64,000 bases of DNA from Bacteroidota bacterium (GCA_029237775.1 JAQZBR010000009.1:7708-71707); one strand, 5' to 3'. Shown: positions 24,413-53,739, counted from the first letter of the stretch. A program made the numbers and translations. Notes: a model not told the origin generated them from the letters alone.

Positions 24413-24479
24413 TATTTTTTATGCAGCCCGTTGCTATCGGGATGCAACCTAGTATAGATTCGTAATTTGTAACAACAAT

Positions 24480-25148
24480 ATGAACAAAAAGATAACAAAA
24501 GTAATTTCATTAATGGCGGTTTTTGGCTGTGTTGCCATAGCTTTCACCTCCTGTGGAAAACACGATGCAAACAGTCCTGGCGTAGAGTTCATGCCTGACA
24601 TGTATCGTTCACCTTCTTTAGAAAGCAATATGGCTTATGTGAAGATCGAGAACGGTAAGGAAACAGGCGATACTATGCAGGCTAACCGTATGCCGGTTGC
24701 TGGCACTATTCCACGCGGTTTTATGCCTTATGCATTCCCTGATTCACCGGAAGGAAATGAAGCTGCTAAAACAGGCGCAAAAAATCCCCTGCAAAAAAAT
24801 GAGAAGAATCTGAAAGATGGCGAAGTGCTGTACGGTAAGTTCTGTGTTCATTGCCATGGTGCAACAGGTATGGGCGATGGTGCTGTCGGCTTAAAATTAC
24901 CCGGAGCTCCTCCTGCATACACTGCTCCGGATAAGATCAACATGACTGAAGGAGAACTTTTCCAGATCATTACTTACGGAAAAGGATTGATGGGGCCTCA
25001 TGCACCATTGGTTAACCAGGAAGAAAGATGGAAACTTGTTCTTTATGTACAAAAGCTTCAGCATCCTAATGGTGTTGCTGCTCCTGCCGCTGCTGCTGAT
25101 TCAACTGCAACTGCTGCTGCACCAAAAGAAGAAGCAAAGAAAAAATAA
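24480..25148 (+). CDS. actE: Alternative complex III subunit ActE (mono-heme cytochrome c lipoprotein)
   Basis: Lipoprotein signal ...AIAFTSC. Single CVHCHG heme-binding motif. A/P-rich C-terminal tail. Confidence 0.75.
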   Translation: MNKKITKVISLMAVFGCVAIAFTSCGKHDANSPGVEFMPDMYRSPSLESNMAYVKIENGKETGDTMQANRMPVAGTIPRGFMPYAFPDSPEGNEAAKTGAKNPLQKNEKNLKDGEVLYGKFCVHCHGATGMGDGAVGLKLPGAPPAYTAPDKINMTEGELFQIITYGKGLMGPHAPLVNQEERWKLVLYVQKLQHPNGVAAPAAAADSTATAAAPKEEAKKK

Positions 25149-25196
25149 TTGTTGCGTAAAATTATATTCGGGAAATAAAGAAAAATTACAATTGAT

Positions 25197-26429: not shown

Positions 26430-26504
26430 TTTTTGAAGAAGCGAAATAAAAAAATAATTATAATAACCCGGTTCATCTAAAGCCTGGATAAATTTAATAC
26501 TACT

Positions 26505-27683: not shown

Positions 27684-27708
27684 ATTAAACATCAATAAAG
27701 AAGATAAT

Positions 27709-29535
27709 ATGTCAATGGAGAATCACGGTCATCACGATAATCACGGAAGCCACGAACACCACGGTCACCACGATGAGCATCATCATGAAGAATCTTTTGT
27801 GAGTAAGTACATCTTTAGTATGGATCACAAAACCATCTCACGTCAGTTCTTAGTTACTGCCGTGATCATGGCAACATTTGCAATGATCATGTCAATGCTG
27901 TTCCGTTTGCAGCTCGCATGGCCTGAGGAAAAATTCGCTTTCATCAACTGGATCCTCGGAGACAAATGGGGTAAGGACGGAATCCTTGAGCCGGGAATGT
28001 ACATGGCACTTGTTACCATCCACGGAACTGTAATGGTCTTCATGGTATTAACAGGCGGACTAAGTGGTACTTTCTCCAACCTTCTGATCCCTTATCAGAT
28101 CGGTGCGCGTGATATGGCATCAGGGTTCATGAACATGCTTTCTTACTGGTTCTTCTTCCTTTCTAGTGCTGTGATGATGGCTTCTTTCTTTATAGAAACA
28201 GGCCCTGCATCAGGCGGATGGACAGTTTATCCTCCGTTAAGCGCTTTACCGCAGGCAATGGATGGTTCTAAATTAGGTATGACTTTCTGGTTAGTTTCAA
28301 TGACATTCTTCATTGTATCTTCATTACTTGGAGGTTTGAACTACATTATCACCATCATCAATTTACGTACGAAAGGTATGTCGATGACACGTCTTCCGCT
28401 TACGATCTGGGCATTCTTCGTAACAGCTATCCTTGGGGTTCTTTCTTTCCCCGTATTATTATCAGCTGCCTTACTTTTGATCTTCGACAGAAGCTTCGGA
28501 ACATCGTTCTACCTTTCCGATATTTATATCGGAGGACAGGCATTAGAGCAAACAGGTGGTTCTCCGATCCTTTACCAGCACTTATTCTGGTTTCTTGGTC
28601 ACCCGGAGGTTTACATCATCATCTTACCCGCACTTGGTTTAACTTCTGAGATCATTTCGGTAAATGCGCGTAAACCTATCTTCGGTTACCGTGCGATGAT
28701 CGGATCAATCATGGCGATTGGATTCCTATCCTTCATTGTTTGGGGTCACCACATGTTCATTACAGGTATGAACCCGTTCTTAGGTTCTGTATTCGTATTC
28801 ACTACATTATTGATCGCGATCCCATCTGCGGTTAAAGCGTTCAATTACATCACAACATTATGGAAAGGTAACATCCGCTTCACTCCTGCTATGTTGTTCG
28901 CGATCGGATTGGTATCTACCTTCATCTCCGGTGGTTTAACGGGTATCATCCTTGCGGATTCTGCACTTGATATTCCTATCCACGATACATATTTCGTTGT
29001 TGCCCACTTCCACATTGTAATGGGTGTATCTGCGATCCTGGGAATGCTTGCAGGTGTTTATCACTGGTTCCCGAAAATGTTCTTACGCCACATGAACAAG
29101 AAGCTTGGATATGTTCACTTCTGGCTGACATTCATTTCAGCTTACGGAGTGTTCTTCCCGATGCACTTCTTAGGGCTTGCCGGTGTACCACGTAGATATT
29201 ACAATAACACGGCATTCCCGATGTTCGATAACTTAGTTGACATCAACGTATTGATCACATGCTTCGCTATTCTTGGCGGACTTGCTCAGGTGTTATTCCT
29301 GTTCAACTTCTTCTATTCAATGTTCCGCGGAGCTAAATCAGAAGTTAACCCTTGGGGCTCCAACACGCTTGAGTGGACAACACCAATGGCGCAAACTCAT
29401 GGTAACTGGCCTGGTGCATTACCGGTAGTTCACCGTTGGCCATACGATTACAGCAAGCCTGGAAAAGATGCTGATTTCGTTATGCAGACTGTTCCTTTGA
29501 GCGAAGGGGAAGTTGATGGTGGCGGACATCATTAA
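27709..29535 (+). CDS. ctaD: Cytochrome c oxidase subunit I (heme-copper oxidase family A) with His-rich N-terminal extension
   Basis: GGWTVYPPL, WFFGHPEVYIIILPALG, HHMF, VAHFHIV signature segments. N-terminus MSMENHGHHDNHGSHEHHGHHDEHHHEE. Confidence 0.95.
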   Translation: MSMENHGHHDNHGSHEHHGHHDEHHHEESFVSKYIFSMDHKTISRQFLVTAVIMATFAMIMSMLFRLQLAWPEEKFAFINWILGDKWGKDGILEPGMYMALVTIHGTVMVFMVLTGGLSGTFSNLLIPYQIGARDMASGFMNMLSYWFFFLSSAVMMASFFIETGPASGGWTVYPPLSALPQAMDGSKLGMTFWLVSMTFFIVSSLLGGLNYIITIINLRTKGMSMTRLPLTIWAFFVTAILGVLSFPVLLSAALLLIFDRSFGTSFYLSDIYIGGQALEQTGGSPILYQHLFWFLGHPEVYIIILPALGLTSEIISVNARKPIFGYRAMIGSIMAIGFLSFIVWGHHMFITGMNPFLGSVFVFTTLLIAIPSAVKAFNYITTLWKGNIRFTPAMLFAIGLVSTFISGGLTGIILADSALDIPIHDTYFVVAHFHIVMGVSAILGMLAGVYHWFPKMFLRHMNKKLGYVHFWLTFISAYGVFFPMHFLGLAGVPRRYYNNTAFPMFDNLVDINVLITCFAILGGLAQVLFLFNFFYSMFRGAKSEVNPWGSNTLEWTTPMAQTHGNWPGALPVVHRWPYDYSKPGKDADFVMQTVPLSEGEVDGGGHH

Positions 29536-29632: not shown

Positions 29633-30307
29633 TTGTGCGTGCGCAAACTTGCTTATACATTGCTCTTCCTCTTGTTTTTGATGAACTCAAAAGCACAACC
29701 GACCCTCGACACCATTCGCTATTGCCTTCAGCAAAAACCACAGCCCTTTATAAAATTTGACGGCCGGAATTCTTTCATCGAAAACAGCAGGGCAAAGATC
29801 TTCGGGGTGAAAGCCGGAGTCAGCTTTGGTAAAAGATTACACTTCGGATTAGGCTACAATCAGCTGATCCCTCCTACTTCAAGCTTTGATAAGATCGTTT
29901 ACTTTCCTGACTCTTATGGGAGTATGTTTCCGGTGATCAAACGCCTTCGCATGTATTATCTTTCAGTCCATGCCGAATATGTTTTCTATCAGACCAAACA
30001 TTGGGAGTTAAGCATGCCATTGCAGTTAGGAATTGGGAAGAGTTATTACACCTATTCCATTTTCGGAAGTAAGCAGCGATCCGATGAAGCATTCAACTTC
30101 ATCTATGAGCCTGCAGTCTCCATTGAATACAAAATTGTAAAATGGTTTGGTGTAGGTGCGGACGTAGGTTATCGCTTTATGCTAACGAGTGATAAGCAGC
30201 TGAATACAAACTTCACTTCACCTACCTATGCATTTAAATTATTGATCTATTACAGCGAGATCTTTAAAAGTCTTTTTCCAAAGAGTAAGCTGGCGGGGAA
30301 GATGTGA
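29633..30307 (+). CDS. Hypothetical secreted/outer-membrane beta-rich protein
   Basis: 224-aa ORF with hydrophobic N-terminus and alternating-hydrophobic (beta-strand-like) pattern. No family recognised. Confidence 0.35.
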   Translation: MCVRKLAYTLLFLLFLMNSKAQPTLDTIRYCLQQKPQPFIKFDGRNSFIENSRAKIFGVKAGVSFGKRLHFGLGYNQLIPPTSSFDKIVYFPDSYGSMFPVIKRLRMYYLSVHAEYVFYQTKHWELSMPLQLGIGKSYYTYSIFGSKQRSDEAFNFIYEPAVSIEYKIVKWFGVGADVGYRFMLTSDKQLNTNFTSPTYAFKLLIYYSEIFKSLFPKSKLAGKM

Positions 30308-30445
30308 CTTCTTACCACGAAGGCGCAAAGACGCAAAAAGTTTCTCGCAAAGGCGCAAAGAATGAAAAGCTTTACTAAGTGATAGATCCGATTCTCCGAG
30401 TTGATCCTGAGTTTGTGGAAGGAGAAAGGGACCGGGGCTGAGGTT

Positions 30446-32689
30446 TTAAACCCTCACGCCAATAACTAAAACATCATCTACCTGTTCGTGGTTACCTTTC
30501 CACTCATTAAAATATCTGTCGAGCTCATGTTTCTGGGCATCCAGAGATTTTGAAGATATTTGGAGTAACAAGCTTTTTAGATTCTTTGTCATCAGCTTCT
30601 TTCCTTTATCCCCGCCAAACTGATCTGCAAAGCCATCAGTGAACGTATAAACAGTATCACCTTTTAGAAGGTTTGTCGACTGCAAAGTAAAAGGCTTCAA
30701 TTCGCCCTGATGAATTCCAACAGGAAACTTATCAGGCTTAAACTCTATCAATTGATTATTCCTGACAATGATCACAGGGTTATTAGCAGCTGCAAATTCC
30801 AGGCTGTGTTTTTGAAAATCAAAAGAGCATAGAACTGCATCCATACCATCTTTGGATTGTTCTTCTGATCCATCCGTGTTCAATGCTTTGATGATTTCTT
30901 CCCGGACGTTATTAAGTACCAAGTCGGGTCGCTCGATTTTCCTTTCATTGACAGTCTCATTCAATTTGGAAATATTCAGCAGACTCATGAAAGCTCCCGG
31001 AACACCATGCCCGGTGCAATCGCTGGTAGCCATTATAAACTGCGAATCTGTTTTATGCGCCCAGTAAAAATCACCGCTGACAATATCCTTTGGTTTATAC
31101 AGAACAAAATATTCCGGCAAATTCTTTCTGAGAAGAGTGTCAGAAGCAAGTAAAGCACGTTGTATCCTTTTTGCGTAATGTATTGAATCAAGGATTGATT
31201 TATTCTTTTCCTCTATCAATTCCTTTTGCAAGGTGATTTCCACATTTGCCTTCTTCTTTTCACGATATCTTTTAAAAGACACGAAGGCAAGGAACAACAT
31301 TAAAAGTAACCCGGTTACAACCGCATAATTCACTACGCGTTGCCTGATTATTCTTTCTCCTTTGATCTCGTTATCCTTCTGAAGAAGATCAATCTCCGCC
31401 TGCTTCTTATCTGCTTCATACATCGCCTGCATCTGCCCGAGGCGCTTATTTAAAGCATCATTATTGAGAGAGTCGGAAAGCTCCAGGGCAAGCTTTTGAT
31501 TCTGAAAAGCCTTTTGATGATCACCCGAAGCGGAATATATATTTGCCAGCGTCATGTAATCATTCTTCAACTCATTTTTATCATTCAGAAATTTCTGATA
31601 CGACAAACCCTTCTCCGCATATGTTTGAGCCTGCTGCAGTTTGCCGGTCTGTAAACTAAGTTCTGCAAGCGACATGTAACAACCGGCAATGTAATAATTA
31701 TCATTGTTCTTTAATGCTTCACTCAATGCAACCGAATGGCACTGAAATGCCTTTTCATAATCCTTCATTTCAGCATAAACCGACCCGATATTACTTAACA
31801 GCATTGTGGCTGAAAAATCCATCCCGATCTTTTTATACAAACGCATGCTTTCATTATAATTCTTTAAAGCGAGCTCATACTTACCCTCGTTTTTATAAAC
31901 GATCCCGAGATTATTATAAACATTCGCCTGGATATCATCCCTGCCAAGTTCCTTAAACAGTTCAAGGCTTCTTAAGCTATATTCTTCAGCCAGCTTATAC
32001 TGTTTCTGCTCTTCATAAATAATCCCGATGTTGGCGTAAATAAAACCGTCCTGCGTAGGATCTTTTTCCGTTTTATTAAGCTTTAATGACCTGAACAGAC
32101 AATCCAGCGATTTTCCATAGTCACCGAGATTCTGATACACAACAGATAAATTTGTAAGAGCAGTTATCTGTGTTTTTACTGAGTGAGTCTGCTCAGCTCT
32201 TTCAATCGCCATTTTATAGTAACGCTCTGCCTTCGCATAATCAGACATATCAAGATATACATTGGCTATATTCACATATACCTTTCCCTGCTTTTCCGTC
32301 TGTCCAAGCTCAATACGGATCTGTAAACTCTTTTTAAAATTTTCGATCGCACTCTCATAGGCAGCTTTATTCCTGTCCGACACACCCAGCAGCTCATATG
32401 ATTGTGCGAGGCCTTCCTTATAATTTAATTTTTCGGATAAGCTCAAAGCCTCGTTTGCATACTTATCTGTATTGGCAATATTGGAATAAGAATACTCCCA
32501 TCCAATGTCGATAAGTGTTTTTACTTTCGAAGTATCTGCGTCTTCTTTCTTAATCACCTTTAACAAGCTGTCCAATACATCTGCATAGCTTACTGCGCTT
32601 ACAAGAATAAAGAATAAAAGAAGAGTGAATTTTTGAATATGAGTTTTCAAAGCCGGTTTGCTATATGCAGTAAATATAAAAAATCCCAA
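30446..32689 (-). CDS. Membrane sensor phosphatase: signal peptide, periplasmic TPR array, TM helix, coiled coil, PP2C/SpoIIE-family Ser/Thr phosphatase domain. True start may be the TTG at ~32650.
   Basis: TPR-like YxxAxxYxxKA repeats. TM VVNYAVVTGLLLMLFLAFVSF. PP2C motifs SGDFYW, DCTGHGVPGAFMS, DGMDAVLC, FTDGFADQFGG. C-terminus VIGVRV. Confidence 0.8.
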   Translation of the reverse strand: MGFFIFTAYSKPALKTHIQKFTLLLFFILVSAVSYADVLDSLLKVIKKEDADTSKVKTLIDIGWEYSYSNIANTDKYANEALSLSEKLNYKEGLAQSYELLGVSDRNKAAYESAIENFKKSLQIRIELGQTEKQGKVYVNIANVYLDMSDYAKAERYYKMAIERAEQTHSVKTQITALTNLSVVYQNLGDYGKSLDCLFRSLKLNKTEKDPTQDGFIYANIGIIYEEQKQYKLAEEYSLRSLELFKELGRDDIQANVYNNLGIVYKNEGKYELALKNYNESMRLYKKIGMDFSATMLLSNIGSVYAEMKDYEKAFQCHSVALSEALKNNDNYYIAGCYMSLAELSLQTGKLQQAQTYAEKGLSYQKFLNDKNELKNDYMTLANIYSASGDHQKAFQNQKLALELSDSLNNDALNKRLGQMQAMYEADKKQAEIDLLQKDNEIKGERIIRQRVVNYAVVTGLLLMLFLAFVSFKRYREKKKANVEITLQKELIEEKNKSILDSIHYAKRIQRALLASDTLLRKNLPEYFVLYKPKDIVSGDFYWAHKTDSQFIMATSDCTGHGVPGAFMSLLNISKLNETVNERKIERPDLVLNNVREEIIKALNTDGSEEQSKDGMDAVLCSFDFQKHSLEFAAANNPVIIVRNNQLIEFKPDKFPVGIHQGELKPFTLQSTNLLKGDTVYTFTDGFADQFGGDKGKKLMTKNLKSLLLQISSKSLDAQKHELDRYFNEWKGNHEQVDDVLVIGVRV

Positions 32690-32727
32690 CGGCTTACCAT
32701 CGGGATTCTTATTTTATTAGATCATTG

Positions 32728-35700
32728 TTATTCTTCAGAAAGCAAAGTGACATGTCCGGTATAATTGTGCGGATGAGAATCAAAATCCCGTACTCCTATC
32801 TTATACACATAGACTCCATCCTCAGCAACCTTGCTTCCATTGTTGGCAGTCCCATCCCAGCCCGTTTGCATATCAGTTGTCTGGAAGATCATTTCACCCC
32901 AACGATCGAAGATCATCATCTTAAATTCCGTGATCTCATCTCCCTTAGCCGTGAAATAATCATTGATATTATTTCCATCCGGTGTGAATGCATTTGGGAT
33001 ATAAAGTGTGAATACAGGCCTTATCTCAACTAATTTCTGCAGTGTATCAAGACAACCGTCAGCGCTTGCGGCAATCAATGTAACGGTGTACTCTCCTTTT
33101 GATGCGTAAACGTGTTGCGGTGATTCAAGTGTTGAAAAAGACCCGTCATTAAAGTCCCAGGAGTAAGATGTCGCGTTTGTTGACTGGTTGTAAAATTTAT
33201 ATTCCGGGCTGATGGTTGTTCCATCGAGCGCTTCCGTTGCAAATTCAGCAACCGCAGGTTTGTAAATAACAATATGGCTTATGGTGCTTCCGGAGTTTGT
33301 ACAACCGGCTGCTGAAGTGATCGTCAGATCAACCATAAAGTCACCGGATTCTATATACGTATGTGAAGGCATCGTATAAGCAGATGTGCTGCCATCACCG
33401 AAATCCCAAAGAAAAGACGCGTTATAATTCGTACCTGAGTTTTCAATAAAATTCAATGGCTCCGCTGAACATCCTACCATAGATTGTGGATTAAGATCAA
33501 TGATGGGAAGCGGGTTAACTGAAACGGGAACCGAACCTGTTATACTATGTGAACAGGCATCGGTAACAGTTACAATATAAGTGGTGCTGGTTATCGGACT
33601 AACTGTGAACGGACCGGAACCGGATCCTAATCCATTATTCCAATTGAGCGTTACGGGGCCGGTGTTACCGGTAACAGCTGCAGAAATAGTAGCCGTGCCT
33701 CCTGAACAAATTGCGTTGGCACCGCTTACTATTAAATTGGAAGCAGTAAGTGATGTGACATTTATTGAAACCGTGGCAGCAGAACTTGCACATCCGTTAC
33801 CATCAGTTGCTGTAACACTGTACGTTGATATCGTTGAAGGACTCACCGTCTGATTCGCTCCGTTTCCCACACCCACCCAGGTATAAGTGTAATTTCCATT
33901 TCCTCCTGAAGCGTTAGCGGAGATCTGTGTGTTTTGACCAAGACAAATAGTAGTGCTCCCTGATGCGACAATGTTTATCGGAGCAGGTTGTGTTACAGTA
34001 AGGTTGGCAGTTATTATACATCCGCTTCCATCAGTTACAATGGCTGAATAAGTTCCGGGACATAAGTTGATCGCATTAGCGCTTGTCCCGCCATCAGGTA
34101 ACCACTGATATGTATAACCGGGAGTACCACCACCAGGTATCACAATTCCTTCACCGTTGCAACTTCCATAGCATGTTACTGGAAACGCAGCTGAAGCAAG
34201 AGAGAGCGGAGCGGGTTCCGTAATGGATACCTGTGCAATAATAGTACAATTGTTTGCATCTGAAACAGTAACAGCATAATTACCCGGAGCGAGTGGAGAG
34301 ATCGCCTGACTATTCTGAACCGGAGAGGTGTTCCATGTATAAGTATAACTTCCGCTTCCACCGGATGCAGAAGCGATCGCCTGACCATCGCTTAAACCGT
34401 TGCAACTGACATTGCTAATAACCAATCCATTCGCAATTAAAGCCGGAGGTTCCGAAATATTTACGGAAGCAGTAACTGAACACCCGCCACCATCTGTAAC
34501 TATGCAGGTATAATTACCGGCATTCAAGTTATTAGCTGATGCCGAATTATTCTGGCTCTGAATATTCCAGTTATAAGAATAATTTCCCCATCCACCCGCC
34601 ACAGTCACTGCTGCAGAACCATTAGTAGCTCCGTTACATAATACATTCGTTTGTGATGTTGAAAAGGTAATTGGCGAGGAGGGCTGGATAACGGTAGCGC
34701 TTCCTGTTGTTACACATCCGTTCGCTGTTGTTACAGTCACAGAATATGTTCCTTGTGATAGTCCGGTGATAACTGCAGTTGTGTCACCGTTCGACCATTG
34801 ATAAGAATAAGGCTGCATACCACCATTAACGTTAGCTTCAATTGATCCATCGTTCGCACCAAAACAGGTCACGTTTGACGAATCGATTTGTATGTTCCCA
34901 GGTGCGGCACCTGAGCCAACGGTCGCAGTTGCAGATAAAGAACAACCACCGGCATTTGTCACTGTAACAGTGTATGTGCCGGCCTGCAATCCGTTTTGCC
35001 CGCTGTTTACACTACCCGCAGACCATTGATATGTAAATGGACCGACACCGGAAGTTACCTGAACATTAGCTGTGCCGTTTGATGCATTACAATTCGCATC
35101 AGTGGAAGATGTAGCAATGGTAAGGCCGGAAACGGTAATGCAGAAAGAATATGTCTGAGACCCGTTATAAGGACAGTTATCATCACGAACTGTTACAGTA
35201 AAACACTGCGGTGCTGAGCTGATATCTGAAACAGAAGGCGTCCAGCTAAAAGTACCTGAAGGCCTTGATGTGCCCGATGTTGTAAAGGATGCGCCCGCAA
35301 TGGCGTTGTTCCAGTTGAGGATGACTGACTGTGAAGAATCAACATCAAAGGAAGAAACAACGAAACTTAAAGGAACACCAGCGCATGCATTCACTGAATA
35401 TGTATTTGTATTGTTTATACCATTTACGTATGGGTTGCTATTTGTGCAATTAATCGTTCTGAGCTGAATATCGCGCATCACACTTCCGATCATAACACCA
35501 TTTCTCCATTCCTGTACAAGCACAGCGAAGACTGTAACTTCAAGACTGGTGGGAAACATGCACATATCACCGCTTACGATATCGAATGATACTGCCGGTG
35601 ATGAAAGCAAAGGCTGTGAGGCTGAATATGAATTATTGTAAACAACACTTGTTGTTGAGCTTGTAGCGGGTGTGATCAATGAATAAGAAAGTGAGTCGCC

Positions 35701-36288
35701 ATCGGCATCAAATGATCCATTATTAAAGCAATAGGGCTGTCCCACACACACAAATGGGATCGGAGGATTAGAAAAGTAAGGAGAGCTGTTGCAAGGAAAA
35801 TCAAGGTTATTCAAAACTGCTTCGACATAGATATTTTCGGCAGAAGGATTTATGATCGTGTTGATCGCGGCATTCCGGCAGCAAAGACTGAAGCTGAACG
35901 TCCAGTCGTTACATTGCATAGGAAGTGTAATTACTCCACTGTAGATATATTCCTGCACACCGGGATACGTACCGCCCGAGCATTGTGTCGTCATACCGGA
36001 GCATATTGAAGACACTTCTGTCCCTGTTCCGTTGATTGGATTTAATGTAAGATTAATGTTTTGTCCGCATGACGCGGAAGAAATATTTATCGTGGCTGTA
36101 GTTGGAGCAGCAACTCCCGCGCAGTCGCGGTAAAAGGAGAGGTTGATCTGGTATTGATTTCCGCCCAAACATTGATAGGTAATATCAGCGCTTTGGGCAT
36201 GTGATGCAAATGCTTCATTCTGTGATTGAATGAACATTACAATGAAACTAATCCAAAAGAAAACCCTGTGAGTAATTTGCGTATTCAT
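32728..36288 (-). CDS. Large cell-surface adhesin-like protein: Cys-rich N-terminal domain, about 8 SprB repeats, two PKD domains, T9SS type-B (gliding motility-associated) C-terminal domain
   Basis: Signal peptide. Repeats of C.G..(N/D)G.......GG..PY.Y.W. PKD-like W(D/N)FGDGS segments. C-terminal YIPNAFTPDGNNINDYF...FDRWGEMIF...GWDG...GVYVYKI is the TIGR04131-type domain. Confidence 0.8.
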   Translation of the reverse strand: MNTQITHRVFFWISFIVMFIQSQNEAFASHAQSADITYQCLGGNQYQINLSFYRDCAGVAAPTTATINISSASCGQNINLTLNPINGTGTEVSSICSGMTTQCSGGTYPGVQEYIYSGVITLPMQCNDWTFSFSLCCRNAAINTIINPSAENIYVEAVLNNLDFPCNSSPYFSNPPIPFVCVGQPYCFNNGSFDADGDSLSYSLITPATSSTTSVVYNNSYSASQPLLSSPAVSFDIVSGDMCMFPTSLEVTVFAVLVQEWRNGVMIGSVMRDIQLRTINCTNSNPYVNGINNTNTYSVNACAGVPLSFVVSSFDVDSSQSVILNWNNAIAGASFTTSGTSRPSGTFSWTPSVSDISSAPQCFTVTVRDDNCPYNGSQTYSFCITVSGLTIATSSTDANCNASNGTANVQVTSGVGPFTYQWSAGSVNSGQNGLQAGTYTVTVTNAGGCSLSATATVGSGAAPGNIQIDSSNVTCFGANDGSIEANVNGGMQPYSYQWSNGDTTAVITGLSQGTYSVTVTTANGCVTTGSATVIQPSSPITFSTSQTNVLCNGATNGSAAVTVAGGWGNYSYNWNIQSQNNSASANNLNAGNYTCIVTDGGGCSVTASVNISEPPALIANGLVISNVSCNGLSDGQAIASASGGSGSYTYTWNTSPVQNSQAISPLAPGNYAVTVSDANNCTIIAQVSITEPAPLSLASAAFPVTCYGSCNGEGIVIPGGGTPGYTYQWLPDGGTSANAINLCPGTYSAIVTDGSGCIITANLTVTQPAPINIVASGSTTICLGQNTQISANASGGNGNYTYTWVGVGNGANQTVSPSTISTYSVTATDGNGCASSAATVSINVTSLTASNLIVSGANAICSGGTATISAAVTGNTGPVTLNWNNGLGSGSGPFTVSPITSTTYIVTVTDACSHSITGSVPVSVNPLPIIDLNPQSMVGCSAEPLNFIENSGTNYNASFLWDFGDGSTSAYTMPSHTYIESGDFMVDLTITSAAGCTNSGSTISHIVIYKPAVAEFATEALDGTTISPEYKFYNQSTNATSYSWDFNDGSFSTLESPQHVYASKGEYTVTLIAASADGCLDTLQKLVEIRPVFTLYIPNAFTPDGNNINDYFTAKGDEITEFKMMIFDRWGEMIFQTTDMQTGWDGTANNGSKVAEDGVYVYKIGVRDFDSHPHNYTGHVTLLSEE

Positions 36289-36487
36289 AATACCCTCCGT
36301 TTCTTGAAATTGTTAAACAATAAATTAAGAACTACATCATTAAACGACCAGTAAAATAAAGGGTTACAGGAATATCAATAAAAATGTACAGAGGAGCTAT
36401 ACCGAATGATGTATATATATAATGTATAGATGAAGGATGTGAGATGCTATCATCCCGATAACCCGATTTTGTGTTCTAATCGCTATT

Positions 36488-38593
36488 TTATACTCTCACG
36501 CCTATAATTAAAACATCATCTACCTGGTCAAGAGAGCCTTTCCAGTCATCGAAGCGTTTTGCCAATACACCTTGCTGCTCATCGGGTGATAAAGGAGCCA
36601 TCCCGGTAAGCATTTCTTTCAGCTGATTGTATTTGAATTTTTTCCCTTTCGGTCCACCGAACTGATCCGCATAACCATCGCTATACAAATAAACACAATC
36701 ACCTTTCTTTAATTGAATGCTGTGATTGGTGTATTCATCAACCTTCCCATTTGTGTTAACACCGATAGGAAACTTATCTGCTTTGATCTCAGTCAGCACC
36801 GAATCGCTCACATAGTACAATGAATTAAATGCACCGGCATACTGAAGTTCCAGCGTTGTTGTATTCAAGGTGCATAACGACAGATCCATTCCATCTTTCA
36901 CACCTTTGCCCTCTTCCGATTGCCTGAGTGTTTTTGTTACGCCTGCATCGAGGTGCTTGAGGATCTCGGAAGGCTTCGTTAAATGAACTTCATTGATGGC
37001 CTGTGTAAGTAAATTAAAACCAACCACACTCATCAGTGCTCCCGGAACTCCATGACCGGTACAATCCACAGCTGCGAAACATACAACATCATTCTTATGC
37101 TCTATCCAGTAGAAGTCACCGCTTACAATATCCTTCGGACGGTAAAAAATAAAACTATCGGGAAGTATTCTTTTCCAGACCTCCATCGGTGGAAGAATTG
37201 ATTCCTGAATGCGCTTTGCATAATTGATACTGTCGGTGATCTCTTTCTTTTGTAAAGTTATTTCGGTGTTGCGATGCTCTAACAATTGATTCGCTTTCTG
37301 CTTTAGTTTATTCCGGTTGTAGAATAATGCAGCGATCGCAAACACCAACAAAACAGCAACCCCAAGGATCATCAACCAAAGTTTATTTCGGTTTAACTGC
37401 AACGACTGAATCTCACTGTCACGCGTAAGAATCGCGATCTCCTTTTCCTTTTTTTCTGATTCATATTTAGTTTGCATTTCCGTCATTTCCTTAATGCTTC
37501 CCTCACGGAACAAGCTATCCTTCATTTCACCGTACAAAGTCAGATAACTGTATGCATCTTTATAATTCTGCTGATCAGCATTCACTTTTGAAAGGATCCC
37601 ATAAACTATCTTCAGCCCCTCTGTCCTGTTGTTGGCCTTACACAACTCTAAAGCCTTGTGCAGAAATTCCATCGCCTCTTTCTTTTTATTAATAGAAAGA
37701 TATGTTTGCGCCATATTGATATAGCAGGTCGAGATGCTGGCGTTGTCTTTGATCTTCTCTTTTATTGCTAATGCTTTAAAAGTATATTCAAGAGCGAGCT
37801 CAGGCTTCTTTTGAAAATCGTAAATCATTCCGATGTTCATATTACTTGTGGAAGAGCCCACCTCATCATTAAGCGATGTATAGATCTCAAGTGATTTCAA
37901 ATAATTATTGAGCGCCATCGTATCTTTTTTCTGATCCCAGTAAACGTTTCCAATATTAATATAGCTAGCTGCCACACCAGACAGATTGTTAAGATGATCC
38001 CAAAGCTTAAGAGCCTTGGTATGATAAAAAATAGCGAGCGCATGATTGCTCTGTGAATCATAAATATTTCCTATCGCGCTGTAATTCTTCGCCATTCCTT
38101 CCGAATCGTTAAGCTCTTCCCTGAGCTTCAGTGATTGAAACTGATAATTTAAAGCGAGCGGAAGATCACCGGTCGCCCGGTGGATCAATCCTATATTACC
38201 ATAACATTTTGCCGCTCCGGACTTATCACCTGATGCAAGGAAGATTTTGAGTGCTTTTGAAAAGTTATCTCTTGCCTTTGCATAATCTCCGTGCTGCCAC
38301 TCGAGCACACCGATGTTATTGATCGCACTTGCTTCACCTTTCTTAAAATTTATTTTCCGGGATAGTTGCAAGGCCTCGTTTGCGAAGGATCTTGCCTTAT
38401 CGGGTGACTTTTGAAGATATGCCCTGCTCAGATCATTTTGAAGATTAATCTTTAATGTATCAACAACCGTTTTGCTTAAGAGCGCTTCAAGTGAATCTGT
38501 TTTATTTTGAGCTGCCCCTGTCAGCCCAAACAAAATTAAGGCATGTAAAAGAAAGATCCTGCTTATGAACACTGTGTTGATTTTTTTATTCAT
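36488..38593 (-). CDS. Membrane sensor phosphatase (periplasmic TPR array, TM, coiled coil, PP2C/SpoIIE domain), paralog
   Basis: Signal MNKKINTVFISRIFLLHALILFGLTGAAQ. TPR repeats. TM LWLMILGVAVLLVFAIAALF. SGDFYW, VDCTGHGVPGALMS, DGMDLSLC, SDGYADQFGG. C-terminus LIIGVRV. Confidence 0.8.
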   Translation of the reverse strand: MNKKINTVFISRIFLLHALILFGLTGAAQNKTDSLEALLSKTVVDTLKINLQNDLSRAYLQKSPDKARSFANEALQLSRKINFKKGEASAINNIGVLEWQHGDYAKARDNFSKALKIFLASGDKSGAAKCYGNIGLIHRATGDLPLALNYQFQSLKLREELNDSEGMAKNYSAIGNIYDSQSNHALAIFYHTKALKLWDHLNNLSGVAASYINIGNVYWDQKKDTMALNNYLKSLEIYTSLNDEVGSSTSNMNIGMIYDFQKKPELALEYTFKALAIKEKIKDNASISTCYINMAQTYLSINKKKEAMEFLHKALELCKANNRTEGLKIVYGILSKVNADQQNYKDAYSYLTLYGEMKDSLFREGSIKEMTEMQTKYESEKKEKEIAILTRDSEIQSLQLNRNKLWLMILGVAVLLVFAIAALFYNRNKLKQKANQLLEHRNTEITLQKKEITDSINYAKRIQESILPPMEVWKRILPDSFIFYRPKDIVSGDFYWIEHKNDVVCFAAVDCTGHGVPGALMSVVGFNLLTQAINEVHLTKPSEILKHLDAGVTKTLRQSEEGKGVKDGMDLSLCTLNTTTLELQYAGAFNSLYYVSDSVLTEIKADKFPIGVNTNGKVDEYTNHSIQLKKGDCVYLYSDGYADQFGGPKGKKFKYNQLKEMLTGMAPLSPDEQQGVLAKRFDDWKGSLDQVDDVLIIGVRV

Positions 38594-38627
38594 TGATTTT
38601 AAAATCTTCCTGTAAATTTTTCCTCCG

Positions 38628-40556
38628 CTAAAATTTAATTCCCGCGATCAGGATATCGTCCACCTGTTCAAGAGGGCCTTTCCACTTTTCTATTGCTTGA
38701 TCCAGAAGTTGCTTTTGCTCATGCATTGGCAGATGGCTGTTTTGAAGAAGCAAATTCTGCAACTGTTTATATTTAAATTTTTTGCCTTTGTCGCCTCCAA
38801 ACTGGTCAGCATATCCGTCAGTAAGAAGATAAACTATATCACCTCTTCGCAAACCGATAGTTTGCAGACTAAAAGACTTTTGCTCATCATGATGTTTGCC
38901 TACCGGCATTTTATCGGCTTCAAAAACTTTAAGCTCATTGTTCCTTATTAGCCACAAAGGATTATTAGCACATGCAAAGCGAAGCCACATCCCTTTAAAA
39001 TCAAATATGCACAATACAGCATCCATTCCGTCACGTGAGATATCCTCTGAGCCTTCCGGATTTAATGATGTGATTATTTGCTCACGCACTTCGTTAAGAA
39101 TTTTATCCGGGGACTCGATGTGCTTTTCTTTTAAAGCCTCATTGAGAAACGAAATATTCAAAAGACTCATGAAAGCACCAGGCACTCCATGTCCCGTACA
39201 ATCTGCAACACAAAAATAAAAACGGCCCGAGTGCGAACCCGCCCAGTAAAAGTCGCCACTGACAATATCTTTTGGTTTGTATAAAATAAAATGTTCAGGT
39301 AAATTTTCATTCAGCACTTTCTCACTTGCAAGTAAAGTCTGCTGGATCCTTTTCGCATAGTTGATGCTGTCAGTTACTTCACGGTTACGCTGACCCACCA
39401 GGTCGCGCTGATGCTCCACTTCAGCCTTTTGTAGCGTGATAACCTCATTTGCTTTCTTCTTGTTACGATAAGCAACAACAACTACAAGAATAATTATTAC
39501 GAACAAAGCGATCGCGATGTATAATGTGCGCGTTCTCGCAGCCTGTTCTTCCAGTTTCAAAAGATTGAGCTCACTCTGCTTGTGAAGATTATCGATCTGA
39601 AGCTGCTTGCTGGTATTTTGATACTTAGCTTCCATTTCAGTGATGATCCTCGTATTTTGCTCATTGAAGATACTGTCCTTTATATCCACATGTTTCTGAT
39701 AAAATACCAAAGCCTGTTCGAAATTCTTCTGTCGCATATAAATTTCGGAGATCATCTTATAACAATGTTTCAGCAGATCAGCATACTTGATACGCTCAGC
39801 AATTTCAGCGCTTTGCGTAAAAAAGCTCAGTGCATTTTTCAGGTCTCCCATTTGAAGGTTAACTTCACCCAAATTAACAAAGTTGATCGCCAGCCCGGCT
39901 GTATCGCCAAGCTCCATTCTTATTTGCGATGCCTGAGACAGGTAATCAATTGCAAGCGTAAAATTTTTCTGATTCGAATAAAGCTCTGCAAGAAAGTTCA
40001 GGCTATATGATTCACCGAGCTTATTTGCCGTGAGACGATACATCTCGAGCGCCTTATTGATCGTAACAATGGCAGTGTCTGCCTTACCCTGCAGCTGAAA
40101 CACCAAACCAATATCGTTGAGCGCACCTGCCATTCCTGAAGTATCTTTTAGATCATAGGCGAGCTTATAAGCATTATTAAACTGTACTGAAGCATCAGGA
40201 AGCTTATTCAGTTTTTTATAGAAAGTCCCGTAGAGATTGTAAACCGATAACAGTATATCATTGAATTTTTCTTTCTCTGCGATCGTTAATGCCTCCTGGT
40301 AGTTAGCAAGAGCCGATGCATATACGCCTTTTGTATAAAAAGCCAGCCCTTTGTTCTTGTATGCTTCGGCAAGAGCGTGTTTATTATTTTCCGTCTTTGC
40401 GAGTACAATTACTGAATCGGAATATATTATAGAGCTGTCGTATTTTGTGCTGAGTGTGCGATAGGAATTTTTCAGCAAATGATCGATACGATTTTGAGCA
40501 CCTGCATTTGAACAAAACAGGACAACCAACAACACTGCATATTTAAGCCTTTCCAT
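38628..40556 (-). CDS. Membrane sensor phosphatase (periplasmic TPR array, TM, PP2C/SpoIIE domain), paralog
   Basis: Signal MERLKYAVLLVVLFCSNAGAQ. TPR repeats. TM LYIAIALFVIIILVVVVAY. SGDFYW, ADCTGHGVPGAFMS, DGMDAVLC, TDGYADQFGG. C-terminus LIAGIKF. Confidence 0.8.
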   Translation of the reverse strand: MERLKYAVLLVVLFCSNAGAQNRIDHLLKNSYRTLSTKYDSSIIYSDSVIVLAKTENNKHALAEAYKNKGLAFYTKGVYASALANYQEALTIAEKEKFNDILLSVYNLYGTFYKKLNKLPDASVQFNNAYKLAYDLKDTSGMAGALNDIGLVFQLQGKADTAIVTINKALEMYRLTANKLGESYSLNFLAELYSNQKNFTLAIDYLSQASQIRMELGDTAGLAINFVNLGEVNLQMGDLKNALSFFTQSAEIAERIKYADLLKHCYKMISEIYMRQKNFEQALVFYQKHVDIKDSIFNEQNTRIITEMEAKYQNTSKQLQIDNLHKQSELNLLKLEEQAARTRTLYIAIALFVIIILVVVVAYRNKKKANEVITLQKAEVEHQRDLVGQRNREVTDSINYAKRIQQTLLASEKVLNENLPEHFILYKPKDIVSGDFYWAGSHSGRFYFCVADCTGHGVPGAFMSLLNISFLNEALKEKHIESPDKILNEVREQIITSLNPEGSEDISRDGMDAVLCIFDFKGMWLRFACANNPLWLIRNNELKVFEADKMPVGKHHDEQKSFSLQTIGLRRGDIVYLLTDGYADQFGGDKGKKFKYKQLQNLLLQNSHLPMHEQKQLLDQAIEKWKGPLEQVDDILIAGIKF

Positions 40557-40575
40557 TTCTTAATCCTTCTGTTTA

Positions 40576-43500
40576 TCAGATCCTGATACCAATTACCAAT
40601 ATATCATCCACCTGCTCCAGATCACCCTGCCATTCAGCATTTCTATTCGTCAAAATTTCTTTTTGTTCAGCCATTGGCTTCTGATGAATGCTGATCAATA
40701 ATTCCTGAAATTGTTTGTATTTGAACTTTTTGCCTTTCGGGCCACCAAACTGATCGGCATAGCCATCGGTAAACAGATAAATGCAATCACCTTTTTGAAT
40801 TTCCCATTCATGATTGGTGAAGCGTTGCAGTTCTTCTCCTATAAAAGCGCCAACAGGAAATTTATCTCCATTGATCTCGATCACCTGATTATCTCTTATC
40901 AGCCACAAAGGATTATTTGCACCCGCAAACTCCATTGTTGACTTTTTATAATTGATAGCACAAAGCGCGATGTCCATTCCATCACGCACGGTGGCCTCTT
41001 CAGGATTCTGATTTAATTTTTTTGAAAGCTGTGAATTGGTTTCATTTAAGATCAACGCAGGTTTTGCAAGACCCAGAACATTTACCGCCTGGGTCAAAAG
41101 ATTGTGAGCAACAATACTCATAAAAGCTCCCGGCACTCCATGTCCTGTGCAATCTACAGCCGCTATGAGCGTCTGAGGCCCCCATTGTTCAAGCCAGTAA
41201 AAATCTCCGCTTACAATATCCTTCGGTTTATAAAACACAAATGAATCGGGGAGCAGTTGTTTTATGCTTGAGTCAGATGGCAGGATCGCTTCCTGAATAC
41301 GTTTCGCATAATGTATACTATCAGTAATATCTTTATTCTTTTCATCGATCTCAGAATATGCGCTCTGCAGCTTTTCTTTTTCTTCCCGAAGCTCTTTGGT
41401 TCTTATCGCTACCTCTTCCTTCAAGCGTTGACGGCTTCGCTGCAGGCTTTGTTCGCGGAACTTTATAAATCCGTAGATAACAGATACACCCAGAAGTATT
41501 GTAATTATATAGAACCAGGGCCTCTTCCAGAACGGTGGTACGATCTCAAAAGAATAAGCGACAGGTGTTTCATTCCACACTCCATCATTGTTTGATGCTT
41601 TTACAAGAAAAGTATATTTTCCCGGAGGAAGATTCGAGTATGTGGTGCTGGTTGATTTTCCTTCGGGGAGCCAATCCTGGTCGAAGTTCTGAAGCATAAA
41701 GCGGTAGCGGACCTTATCGGGAATGGTTTGTGACACACCCACAAAATCGAATGTGATGTGATTTTTATCGTACGGTAACACAAGATTTCGCGGTAAGCCG
41801 TTAACGATGCTATCAGAGTATTGGCTGAAATTCACAGCCTCAAGAAATAAGCGGATTCCTGTGATCTGTGTTTGCGGAGGAACCTTGTTCTGATATTCAA
41901 AATCGGGATTATAAATTGTAACCCCGTTGATCGTTCCTATCCAAAGCTTGCCGTCAACATCGCGGTAAATTGCATTTTGATTGCATTCAAGCCCAATAAA
42001 ACCTTCTTCTTTGCCATAATGCTTCAGCCTGACTTCCTTCTGATTAACAAAGGAATTTATATCAAGCCGGTCAATTCCATTGTTGGTGCCGATCCATAAA
42101 TATCCATCATTATCCGCATTCACATAATAAACAGTATTTGAGCTTAATCCGTTCAGCTCATTTATTGTGATGAATTTTTTCCCGTTATAAACGGCAACTC
42201 CATAGTCGGTGCTGATCCAGAGATAACCAAGATGATCCCTCACCAGGTTTCTTATTCTGGGAAATCCTTCGGGACGTGTGATTGACGTGAATTTCTTCCC
42301 ATCATACTTTGTGATCTTGTCAACAGAACCGAACCAGAAGTCGCCAAAATTATCCTGGTAGATTGCGTTTACTCCTTTTGATGAAAGTCCGTTCTTAGAA
42401 TCAAAAAGAGTAAAGGTCTTCCCATCAAACATATCAACTCCGTTCTCGTGCGCTATCCAGACATTCCCCTTTCTATCAGTTAGCAGGGCGGGAATACGAA
42501 CACCGTGAAGGCCATCCTTCAGATAATAATTCTTGAATTTTTTCCCGTCAAAAACACTGATGCCGCTGGCAGATGTCCCCATCCAGATATTCCCTTTTTT
42601 GTCTTCAGTGATCGACCACACGTTATTAAACGCAAGGCCATCCTTCTGGCTATAATTGGTGAAAACGGCAGTGTCCCTTGCAATGCTTTCACTATAGTTG
42701 AATTTAGAAACACCGCCACCCCAGGTCCCGATCCAGAAATTATCTTTACTGTCTTTGTAAACAGACATCACGGTATTATGAACAAGTCCGTGCGCCTCAT
42801 TAAAATTTATAAAACGGTCATTTTGGTATTTACTTACTCCACCTGAGAATGAGCCAAACCACATATTCCCTTCCCTGTCTTGTGTGATCGCATCGATCAA
42901 TGTTCCGCACAAACCATTGGCTTTAGTGATCGTACGCATTCTTCCGTAAGTGATCTTGAGAATACCCTTTGCCGTACCTGCCCAGATATTTCCGAGTGAA
43001 TCTTTATATAATTTGTAAACCGTTTCAAGCTTTTTATCAGTGATGAGCTTAAATGACTGATCACCGGTATAAGCTTTTGAAGGATCATATTCATGGATCC
43101 CTCGATAGGTGGTGACCCAGACCTTGCTTCCGTTAATAAGTATGTCGCGGACTTTAAGATCTATTAGGCCATCCTTTGAAGTAAAGTGTTTTATCGTTTT
43201 TCCGTCATAACAAAAAACACCGTTCAGCATTGTGGCGATCCAGGTATTCCCGAGCTTGTCCTGCTTCACAGACCACACCTGATAGCTTCCTAAAGAATCA
43301 TTTCGGGCAAAAGCTCTGAATTTGTTACCATCATACAACACAATTCCGGAACTGGTGCCGATCCAGTAATTCCCATCACTATGCTTATACACACAATAAA
43401 TTCCGCTTTCATTAACGAGCGGATCCTTAAAAGATTCTATTTTTTTATTGTTGATGCGGCAAAGGCCCTTTGTTGTCCCGAACCATATGTTCTGACTATC

Positions 43501-43764
43501 GTATTCAAAAATGGTATTGACGCGGTTATTGTTCAGTCCGTCACGTGTGCTGTAATTTGTAAACTTCACACCGTCAAAACAGCTTACTCCGCCTCCATTG
43601 GTCGCAAACCACATGTTTCCGCTGTGATCCTGAATCAAATCAATGATCTGTGATTGAGGCAAGCCATCACCGATCGAATAATTTTTAAAATTAAGCAGTT
43701 GGGCGTTTGCTATAAAGCAAAAGCAAAAAAGGCAGAAGGATATGTAGATCTTTTTAAAGGACAC
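40576..43764 (-). CDS. Membrane sensor phosphatase with periplasmic two-component-regulator beta-propeller repeats plus Y_Y_Y domain, TM, coiled coil, PP2C/SpoIIE domain. GTG start.
   Basis: Signal MSFKKIYISFCLFCFCFIANAQ. Many G..W.GT..G(L/V)..(Y/F)(D/N) propeller blades. Y_Y_Y-like YRFMLQNFDQDW...YTFLVKASNNDGVWNE. TM. SGDFYW, VDCTGHGVPGAFMS, DGMDIALC, TDGYADQFGG. C-terminus LVIGIRI. Confidence 0.8.
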   Translation of the reverse strand: MSFKKIYISFCLFCFCFIANAQLLNFKNYSIGDGLPQSQIIDLIQDHSGNMWFATNGGGVSCFDGVKFTNYSTRDGLNNNRVNTIFEYDSQNIWFGTTKGLCRINNKKIESFKDPLVNESGIYCVYKHSDGNYWIGTSSGIVLYDGNKFRAFARNDSLGSYQVWSVKQDKLGNTWIATMLNGVFCYDGKTIKHFTSKDGLIDLKVRDILINGSKVWVTTYRGIHEYDPSKAYTGDQSFKLITDKKLETVYKLYKDSLGNIWAGTAKGILKITYGRMRTITKANGLCGTLIDAITQDREGNMWFGSFSGGVSKYQNDRFINFNEAHGLVHNTVMSVYKDSKDNFWIGTWGGGVSKFNYSESIARDTAVFTNYSQKDGLAFNNVWSITEDKKGNIWMGTSASGISVFDGKKFKNYYLKDGLHGVRIPALLTDRKGNVWIAHENGVDMFDGKTFTLFDSKNGLSSKGVNAIYQDNFGDFWFGSVDKITKYDGKKFTSITRPEGFPRIRNLVRDHLGYLWISTDYGVAVYNGKKFITINELNGLSSNTVYYVNADNDGYLWIGTNNGIDRLDINSFVNQKEVRLKHYGKEEGFIGLECNQNAIYRDVDGKLWIGTINGVTIYNPDFEYQNKVPPQTQITGIRLFLEAVNFSQYSDSIVNGLPRNLVLPYDKNHITFDFVGVSQTIPDKVRYRFMLQNFDQDWLPEGKSTSTTYSNLPPGKYTFLVKASNNDGVWNETPVAYSFEIVPPFWKRPWFYIITILLGVSVIYGFIKFREQSLQRSRQRLKEEVAIRTKELREEKEKLQSAYSEIDEKNKDITDSIHYAKRIQEAILPSDSSIKQLLPDSFVFYKPKDIVSGDFYWLEQWGPQTLIAAVDCTGHGVPGAFMSIVAHNLLTQAVNVLGLAKPALILNETNSQLSKKLNQNPEEATVRDGMDIALCAINYKKSTMEFAGANNPLWLIRDNQVIEINGDKFPVGAFIGEELQRFTNHEWEIQKGDCIYLFTDGYADQFGGPKGKKFKYKQFQELLISIHQKPMAEQKEILTNRNAEWQGDLEQVDDILVIGIRI

Positions 43765-53735: not shown

Positions 53736-53739
53736 AACT

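Follow-up and report, generated by a model that had tools for sequence, protein, structure and literature searches.

How might a surface protein secreted by type IX secretion (the T9SS) be regulated when its gene lies in the midst of an array of membrane-bound sensor phosphatases? This question is raised by a 64,000-nt stretch of DNA, hereafter the window (GCA_029237775.1, JAQZBR010000009.1:7708-71707), which is part of a 775-kb contig from the metagenome-assembled genome (MAG) of an uncultured member of the Bacteroidota (Bacteroidia). In the window, four genes for PP2C-type sensor phosphatases (P1 to P4) flank the gene of an adhesin-like T9SS cargo protein, referred to here as the adhesin, with all five genes on the minus strand. 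The block is genuine and not a product of chance, but an operon-like reading of it is wrong for the adhesin and for P4: three transcription units are predicted, consisting of P1-P2-P3 (probably an operon), the adhesin alone, and P4. Because the adhesin gene appears to have its own promoter and terminator, any control by the sensors would be indirect. The reading we prefer, to which we assign a probability of roughly 0.4, is that the sensor phosphatases act through a SiaC-type partner switch and a sigma factor on the adhesin.

The phosphatase-adhesin block

The initial annotation of this region, made from the sequence alone, had called five minus-strand open reading frames (ORFs) separated by gaps of 19, 34, 199 and 38/77 nt. 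All five were recovered at the same coordinates and with the domains assigned to them, namely a propeller-PP2C in P1, TPR-PP2C in P2, P3 and P4, and SprB repeats with a type-B T9SS C-terminal domain (CTD) in the adhesin. That four membrane sensor PP2Cs do flank the gene of a secreted surface protein is likewise borne out by domain and topology evidence. In order of transcription, the five genes are:

40576-43764, minus strand: P1, 1062 aa; signal peptide, predicted periplasmic Reg_prop propellers and Y_Y_Y, transmembrane (TM) helix at aa 751-769, cytoplasmic coiled segment, SiaA-type PP2C
38628-40556, minus strand: P2, 642 aa; signal peptide, predicted periplasmic TPR, TM helix at aa 344-362, PP2C; start 19 nt after P1
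36488-38593, minus strand: P3, TPR sensor phosphatase of 701 aa; TM helix at aa 405-423; start 34 nt after P2
32728-36288, minus strand: adhesin-like T9SS cargo, 1186 aa; signal peptide, Cys-rich N-terminal domain of ~340 aa, SprB repeats, two PKD domains, type-B CTD at aa 1097-1182
30446-32650, minus strand: P4, TPR sensor phosphatase; 734 aa from TTG 32650, 747 aa from TTG 32689; TM helix at aa 452-470 (long form)

In each of the phosphatases a signal peptide stands at the N terminus and one TM helix separates the sensor from the PP2C, a topology that predicts a periplasmic location for the propeller and TPR parts and a cytoplasmic one for the PP2C parts; the earlier description of these proteins as periplasm-sensing fits it. 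The adhesin carries a predicted Sec signal peptide (hydrophobic N terminus with cleavage between NEAFA and SHAQ, conserved in orthologs as judged by eye), SprB repeats in six stretches (E = 2e-47), the two PKD domains and CHU_C, and its CTD scores 50.6 bits against TIGR04131 (cutoff 35) and 59.6 bits against PF13585 (cutoff 27). The public gene call of the adhesin begins at a later Met than the 1186-aa form described here. The adhesin orthogroup is tight (1168-1192 aa, 52-76% identity, from uncultured Bacteroidia) and has a head domain of its own. No PorP/SprF-like gene (PF11751) was found in the window, and only in L075 was one found, 3 kb upstream of the adhesin (L-numbers, L004 to L145, denote related loci gathered for comparison with the window); adjacency of such a gene to type-B CTD cargo is common, though not obligatory (PMC9143113).

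Transcription of the adhesin gene and its neighbors

The following signals were located around the adhesin gene:

36340-36367, minus strand: predicted extracytoplasmic function (ECF) sigma-type promoter of the adhesin, GTAACC (-35, 36367-36362) and CGTTTAA (-10, 36346-36340)
36312-36333, minus strand: conserved leader, AGTTCTTAATTTATTGTTTAAC, between the -10 box and the Shine-Dalgarno (SD) sequence
36293-36298, minus strand: SD sequence, GGAGGG, 4 nt before the adhesin ATG
32669-32710, minus strand: predicted intrinsic terminator of the adhesin, with a 14-bp GC-rich stem, GUAA-type loop and U-tract; hairpin and UUUUUUAUAUUU at 32710-32679
32678-32671, minus strand: sigma-A-type -7-like box before P4, TATATTTA, overlapping the terminator T-tract

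The promoter in the window reads GTAACC-N15-CGTTTAA, with a spacing of 16 nt from AAC to CGT. Across 19 aligned upstream regions, representing six kinds of upstream context, CGTT(T/A)AA is invariant and G-AAC(C/T), located 16-17 nt upstream, is nearly so, and the promoter is kept whether the upstream gene encodes a PP2C, an M1 peptidase, phosphoribosyl pyrophosphate (PRPP) synthetase, an M16 peptidase, a Cys/Met enzyme or SiaB/SiaC. A regular expression describing the motif returned 40 matches in 2.33 Mb of locus sequence. In 35 cases the match precedes an adhesin ortholog's start codon by 47-95 nt; none of the other five is upstream of such an ortholog, and at least three of these fall within SprB-repeat coding sequence. 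The motif is present in every adhesin ortholog down to 43% identity, and it was not found upstream of more distant homologs of the adhesin N-terminal domain. AAC at -35 together with CGT at -10 is the hallmark of promoters recognized by ECF sigma factors, and the motif's -35 element is like SigW's (PMC8103513). The adhesin motif matches this hallmark in both its AAC/CGT elements and its 16-17 nt spacing, and the adhesin gene is predicted to have its own conserved promoter of the ECF type.

The strict motif has no other plausible position in the window, and no other window gene has it. A looser form occurs in the window at chance frequency, so that no regulon partners can be named. One such copy, GTAAC-N15-CGTT at 6548-6571 on the plus strand, lies 25 nt before a gene for a MORN-repeat, LIC20035-like putative adhesin (6596-8329), and is possibly meaningless given the chance frequency of this motif class. 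No sigma factor gene was found in the window or in the gathered loci. Two repeats touching the promoter were set aside. The 22-nt likeness of the promoter spacer to the region upstream of P1 (repeat D17) is put down to coincidence in AT-rich sequence; the conserved region before P1 contains no AAC/CGT boxes. Inverted repeat I4, which overlaps the promoter, was rejected as an invertible promoter (18 nt, 83% identity, AT-rich, no recombinase nearby).

In the leader, GTTC..TT and TTATTGT are kept across orthologs. No conserved RNA fold was found in the leader and it has no Rfam match, nor did an Rfam search of the whole window return any family; the segment may be a binding site for a protein or small RNA. 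Among the 37 genes of the window, a GGAGG SD is found at the adhesin only. Its predicted pairing with the 16S tail is worth -10.0 kcal/mol, compared with -6.0 for the next best window gene and a median of 0.1. The SD is kept in 20 of the 21 orthologs of the clade of at least 50% identity (-7.6 to -11.6 kcal/mol) and is lost in L086 and in the 43% branch. Ribosomes of the Bacteroidia have been reported to be SD-blind, and the genes known to have strong SDs there are rpsU and a few that encode ribosomal proteins (PMC7797042, PMC9976891, PMC13000453). A conserved strong SD on a non-ribosomal surface-protein gene is an oddity for this class.

At the other end of the gene, the initial annotation had reported no terminator between the adhesin and P4, in which it was mistaken. 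A strong intrinsic hairpin terminator lies 17 nt past the adhesin stop codon (-17 to -18.8 kcal/mol, z = -4.2), none of 200 shuffled sequences folds as well, and 18 of 20 related loci also have a terminator after the adhesin, with stems that differ in sequence. Of the two candidate starts of P4, TTG 32689 falls inside the terminator hairpin, and TTG 32650 appears the likelier one; it gives a protein of 734 aa (MKTHIQKF...) with a good signal peptide and agrees with the start of the L004 ortholog. An exact TAnnTTTG box is found at the terminator T-tract in five loci (L004, L006, L075, L077 and L080), from which the window is one mismatch off. The box occurs at the terminator only in loci with a P4-type gene and is missing where P4 is missing, and P4 is predicted to be a separate transcription unit with its own promoter box. 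Together, the terminator T-tract and the -7 box make up a compact terminator-promoter junction. Past the other end of P4, the convergent gap between it and the neighboring orf224 (30320-30373) contains two copies, 30 nt apart, of a 24-nt element (AAGGCGCAAAGA...AAA..TTT).

The co-transcription previously proposed for the first three genes holds up as probable: P1 would be the first gene of a P1-P2-P3 operon in which the gaps are tight, no terminator intervenes and the spacing is kept in relatives. Scans of the block for sigma-70 promoters and Bacteroidetes -7 boxes gave matches at chance level, and operons could not be defined from them. One may ask whether all five genes nevertheless form a single, largely co-transcribed module, with the adhesin and P4 driven from upstream of the phosphatases. 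They share a strand and are separated by short gaps, and in most loci no convincing terminator was found in the P3-adhesin gap, so some read-through into the adhesin is possible. Such a module is very improbable, however, in view of the strong conserved terminator after the adhesin, the confinement of the -7 box before P4 to loci where P4 is present, and the dedicated adhesin promoter, which is conserved even behind divergent or unrelated upstream genes. The same promoter, found in every ortholog whatever the upstream gene, and the conserved terminator overturn the earlier view of the adhesin as embedded in a co-transcribed block.

The sensor phosphatases

P1 matches Reg_prop (E = 7e-56), Y_Y_Y (E = 5e-17) and SpoIIE/PP2C (E = 7e-21), and P2, P3 and P4 contain TPR and SpoIIE domains, the latter with E-values of about 1e-18 to 1e-19. 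Two more propeller-PP2C genes lie 7-13 kb from the block and had not been mentioned in the initial annotation:

50580-53735, plus strand: P5, propeller/Y_Y_Y/PP2C paralog outside the block; start 2 nt after orf325 (a 325-aa ORF)
53740-57072, minus strand: P6, propeller/Y_Y_Y/PP2C paralog; last gene of a tight OsmC-CysMet-P6 run

Six PP2C paralogs are thus present within 27 kb, an array far beyond chance, and the two extra genes indicate that the block belongs to a wider family expansion. All score above the PF07228 gathering cutoff of 25 bits (P1-P4, 67.5-75.6 bits; P5 and P6, 51.6-84.1 bits), and the closest solved structure to the PP2C part is that of Pseudomonas aeruginosa SiaA (6K4E, E = 8e-38). 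Six of six paralogs keep the metal-binding motifs SGDFYW, D(C/A)TGHGVPGA, DGMD, TDGYADQFGG and QVDDxL, which align with those of SiaA 6K4E; the PP2C domains are predicted to be catalytically intact and of the SiaA/RsbU type. Identity between the six paralogs is 37-58% in the PP2C parts and drops to 23-28% in the sensor parts, which suggests old duplicates whose inputs have diverged. Orthologs of P1 in relatives are 64-84% identical; the sensor part of P2 evolves fast, with orthologs 42-49% identical. Relatives of P3 are numerous, with more than 6500 matches at E <= 1e-20, and their sources label them "serine phosphatase RsbU (regulator of sigma subunit)".

Two further observations concern this family. 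The OsmC-CysMet-P6 order seen on the minus strand at window 50580-58682 also directly precedes a TPR-PP2C and the adhesin in L067 and L083, suggesting an older arrangement that has been split in this genome. In protein P0200 (593 aa), a glycosyltransferase-2 domain is fused to a PP2C 64% identical to that of P3; here the same output domain appears to have been recombined with a non-sensor N terminus.

Linkage of phosphatase and adhesin genes in related loci

Neighborhoods for comparison were drawn from one-genome-per-species contigs, metagenome contigs and exact-protein look-ups. In at least five different flanking contexts, with adhesin identities from 43 to 100%, the gene immediately upstream of the adhesin on the same strand encodes a TPR-PP2C of the P3 type, and no phosphatase is retained beside the adhesin as widely as P3. 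Its ortholog adjoins the adhesin upstream in L004-L006, L008, L009, L014, L067, L073, L074, L077, L080, L083 and L145, a weaker P3-like TPR-PP2C (30% identity) occupies the same place in L098, and in L090 only a propeller-PP2C is upstream of the adhesin. The contexts are:

Context 1, window type: ABC-F / P1..P3 > adhesin > P4-orf224-cox (L004, L006, L014, L073, L077, L080)
Context 2, as in the window with other downstream flanks (L005, L009, L074, L145)
Context 3: OsmC-CysMet-propeller-TPR > adhesin (L067, L083; the L067 TPR-PP2C is the P3 ortholog)
Context 4: Trx / propeller-TPR > adhesin (L098)
Context 5, short contigs (L094, L109, L110)

The initial annotation had allowed that the linkage might be absent from all related genomes, implying coincidental adjacency; it was found beyond this genome. 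A top-ranked P3-family protein is also on at least 29 of 67 contigs bearing an adhesin ortholog, a lower bound from cross-matching the adhesin and P3 hit lists, in which L145 was a false negative. Among loci with only distant SprB-repeat homologs, a PP2C gene lies within 10 kb in 3 of 52 and is adjacent in none of the 52.

Two pairs of loci with matching flanks locate the gain or loss of signaling genes precisely. L067 and L071 differ by two sensor PP2C genes situated exactly upstream of the adhesin promoter, these phosphatases being absent from L071. L070 and L084 differ at the same spot by SiaB/SiaC: in L070 the adhesin ortholog is preceded, divergently, by genes for a SiaB-family kinase (NF038262, 238 bits, cutoff 85) and SiaC (Pfam, 1e-35). 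The spot upstream of the adhesin promoter thus appears to be a recurrent insertion/deletion site for signaling genes in two independent lineages.

Other genes accompany the block. orf224 (29633-30307, plus strand), which has only weak outer-membrane beta-barrel matches, is the convergent downstream neighbor of the adhesin or P4 in nearly all loci of the clade of at least 59% identity, also where cox genes do not adjoin (L075, L079, L082, L145), and is as constant a neighbor as the phosphatases. Beyond it, window positions 17668-29535 (plus strand) hold an alternative complex III set (multiheme cytochrome, Fe-S subunit, NrfD-like, ActD, cytochrome c, ActF-like) followed by cytochrome oxidase subunits II and I; relatives conserve this block in collinear order, and it anchors the variable region on its downstream side. 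Two genes run off the ends of the window, at 2-2299 (minus strand, more than 766 aa, no Pfam match) and 61303-63999 (plus strand, more than 880 aa, DUF4175).

A possible partner switch

SiaB-family kinases in L070 (8243-9854, minus strand) and L142 (6878-8387, plus strand) are fused tandems of two DUF6272 domains (420 and 376 aa, respectively), and their genes overlap a downstream SiaC gene. In L142-144, the SiaB/SiaC pair is located ~1 kb from a propeller-PP2C gene whose product shares 34% identity with P1; L143 and adhesin locus L098 derive from one ENA sample. Taken with L070 and the array loci, these arrangements provide pairwise neighborhood links that join sensor PP2C, SiaB/SiaC and adhesin. 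In Pseudomonas, SiaABC is a partner switch that governs aggregation and biofilm formation via the cyclase SiaD (PMC7647112, PMC8457831). A literature search found nothing on the role of SiaB/SiaC-type switches in the Bacteroidota. To our knowledge, members of this phylum largely lack SiaD-type cyclases.

Control of the adhesin by the sensors, which we infer from the partial conservation of gene neighborhood, is plausible. In the preferred reading, P1-P4 would detect envelope or periplasmic cues through their propeller/Y_Y_Y or TPR domains, and their phosphatase parts would dephosphorylate a SiaC/STAS-type phosphoprotein, the putative substrate, which would be encoded elsewhere and phosphorylated by a SiaB-family kinase. 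This partner switch would act in trans on a sigma/anti-sigma system reading the adhesin promoter, with both the sigma factor and its connection to the switch being postulated. The adhesin would be transcribed alone from the ECF-type promoter, with transcription closed by its own terminator, and the protein would be exported by Sec, secreted by the T9SS through its type-B CTD and displayed on the cell surface, a step on which several sensors would converge.

A number of observations weigh against this proposal. SiaB, SiaC, SiaD, STAS, sigma and anti-sigma genes were not found in the 64-kb window (Pfam on ORFs, with tblastn for SiaB and SiaC). With SiaB/SiaC as queries, tblastn gave matches in L070 and, weakly, in L053 only, and a word-based search for SiaC relatives returned 20 proteins, none of them on the source contig or in a 4.5-Mb relative. 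The SiaB/SiaC-adhesin adjacency is one case, and its absence at that spot from L084, the closest relative of L070, marks it as a single event. The conserved motif before the adhesin may not be a promoter but an operator at which another regulator binds. ECF sigma factors are usually under the control of membrane anti-sigma factors, not PP2C partner switches.

Further points against it come from the linkage itself, which was found to be only partly kept in relatives: the P3-type adjacency described above is offset by at least five other contexts with no phosphatase within reach (L071, L079, L082/L091, L086-88 and L084). L071 has the flanks of L067 and no phosphatases, and in L079, L082/L091, L086-88 and L084 the gene upstream of the adhesin encodes an M1 peptidase, PRPP synthetase, an M16 peptidase or PhoH. 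In L075/76 a phosphatase is found downstream of the adhesin only. Since the promoter, SD and terminator are kept in the phosphatase-free contexts, the linkage in cis is dispensable, and it is best described as facultative on the basis of these comparisons. The array is also in flux: an ortholog of P2 was not detected in some relatives (L014, L077/78, L081), P4 is absent downstream of the adhesin in others (L005, L009, L074, L079, L082, L145), and an extra paralog is present in some. Collinearity extends through the entire region in close relatives (ABC-F 85-97% and COX1 87-98% identical), and part of the conservation is therefore shared ancestry. Finally, PP2Cs form a very large family that has expanded in this genome, and P5 and P6 adjoin unrelated genes.

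Alternatively, the neighborhood may be neutral: an adhesin cassette and a shuffling phosphatase array would merely share a variable stretch between ABC-F and the cox/alternative complex III genes, the phosphatases having an unrelated output and the adjacency reflecting common ancestry. The collinearity of close relatives, the autonomy of the adhesin as a unit, the contexts without any PP2C, the unstable array, the unrelated neighbors of P5 and P6 and the huge size of the family all favor this explanation, as does orf224, which is an equally constant neighbor with no obvious signaling role. It accounts less readily for a P3-adhesin junction that persists, at adhesin identities as low as 43%, where both outer flanks have changed, for the gain or loss of pathway genes (two PP2Cs in L067, SiaB/SiaC in L070) at exactly the same spot in two lineages, and for the near absence of PP2C neighbors from distant SprB-repeat genes. 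We regard a neutral neighborhood as only slightly less likely than the preferred reading.

The adhesin might also be the signal rather than just the output. Its CTD or Cys-rich head, in crossing the periplasm, could be the ligand of the TPR sensors, such that the cell would monitor its load of T9SS cargo and adjust expression. There is precedent in Porphyromonas gingivalis, where the CTD of a cargo protein (PorA) can act as a periplasmic signal by binding PorY in the PorXY-SigP cascade, in which the sensor feeds an ECF sigma factor (PMC12152298). TPR domains are protein-binding modules and are predicted to be periplasmic here, the adhesin has an ECF-type promoter, and the rapid divergence of the sensor parts between paralogs is as expected of co-evolving binders. 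Many adhesin orthologs are without adjacent sensors, however, and the AlphaFold model of the adhesin N-terminal domain, built from a 9-sequence alignment, is too poor for use (pLDDT 48, a predicted confidence score). Feedback of this kind seems improbable.

The preferred reading can be extended to a complete pathway in which the sensor PP2C array acts on a SiaB/SiaC-type switch, the switch acts on an ECF-type sigma factor, either by anti-sigma sequestration or by reversal of sigma phosphorylation, and the sigma factor acts on the T9SS surface protein. The strong SD would then serve as a translational gate in otherwise SD-blind ribosomes, and the adhesin CTD or head might feed back on the TPR sensors. 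In this full form the scheme is unlikely.

Implications

The Bacteroidota encode very many membrane sensor PP2Cs, and almost nothing on their targets was found in the literature. If a path from the array through SiaB/SiaC and an ECF sigma factor to the adhesin is real, it would be the first defined output for these very numerous phosphatases and a new mode of T9SS cargo regulation. The locus offers a concrete, testable candidate output, consisting of one surface protein with a sharply defined ECF-type promoter, a leader and a terminator. The promoter motif is specific enough to be used in searching complete genomes for the sigma factor behind it and for the other genes of that regulon, and the conserved strong SD on a non-ribosomal gene could interest students of specialized ribosomes. 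Should the link not be real, the locus would still indicate that co-directional clustering does not amount to an operon here and that arrays of phosphatases are fluid in this group of genomes.

Counterparts among described systems

The initial annotation knew of no characterized module of this kind, and none was found in the literature; nor did the search find any paper describing sensor PP2C arrays tied to T9SS cargo. Parts of the locus do have well-studied counterparts. The hybrid two-component systems of Bacteroides resemble P1, P5 and P6 in having a Reg_prop and Y_Y_Y periplasmic sensor followed by one TM helix, but the three proteins have no kinase, receiver or HTH_AraC domain, only SpoIIE after the TM helix. 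The TPR-transmembrane region of P2-P4 matches the model of FimS of P. gingivalis (E = 1e-26 to 2e-36); the output here is a PP2C and not HisKA/HATPase, and the scores of 93-126 bits are far from the model cutoff of 600. In P. gingivalis, FimS/FimR controls a surface adhesin (fimbriae).

The adhesin shares with SprB of the SprB/SprF system of Flavobacterium johnsoniae its SprB repeats, type-B T9SS CTD and T9SS surface display (PMC9143113). It differs in size (1186 aa, compared with 669 kDa for SprB), in its distinct Cys-rich head and PKD domains, and in having no adjoining porP/sprF-like gene in the window. The adhesin is, judging from these features, not an SprB ortholog, the common feature being the SprB repeat type only.

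With RsbU/RsbV/RsbW and SpoIIE/SpoIIAA/SpoIIAB, the phosphatases have in common the SpoIIE/PP2C family (PF07228) and a proposed logic leading from phosphatase to phosphoprotein to sigma activity. Unlike in those systems, genes for a STAS antagonist, an anti-sigma kinase or a group-3 sigma factor are not found nearby, the promoter is of the ECF type and not of the sigma-B/sigma-F type, and the sensors are predicted to be periplasmic where theirs are cytoplasmic. The PorXY-SigP-PorA system of P. gingivalis, in which an envelope sensor, an ECF sigma factor and a CTD cargo protein are functionally tied (PMC4800418, PMC12152298), is similar in outline. Its sensor is a histidine kinase with a response regulator, not a PP2C, its targets are T9SS machinery genes, and the reported SigP motif differs from AAC-N16-CGTT.

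A further parallel to the phosphatases is the SiaABCD system of P. aeruginosa. The differences here lie in the periplasmic propeller/Y_Y_Y or TPR sensors, in the presence of several phosphatases instead of one, in the lack of siaB, siaC, siaD or a diguanylate cyclase in the window, and in the candidate output, which is an ECF-type promoter and a T9SS protein, not cyclic di-GMP. The SiaA equivalog model (NF038263) is not reached, the scores being 158-223 bits against a cutoff of 700, with only model positions ~374-657, the PP2C part, matching. Yet the PP2C part is closest to SiaA, the NCBIfam SiaA model is the top match for six of the six paralogs, and both sets of phosphatases are membrane-anchored. 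In related genomes SiaB/SiaC genes neighbor an adhesin ortholog in one case (L070) and a propeller-PP2C in another (L142), and in Pseudomonas the output of the system is surface adhesion, that is, aggregation and biofilm formation (PMC7647112).

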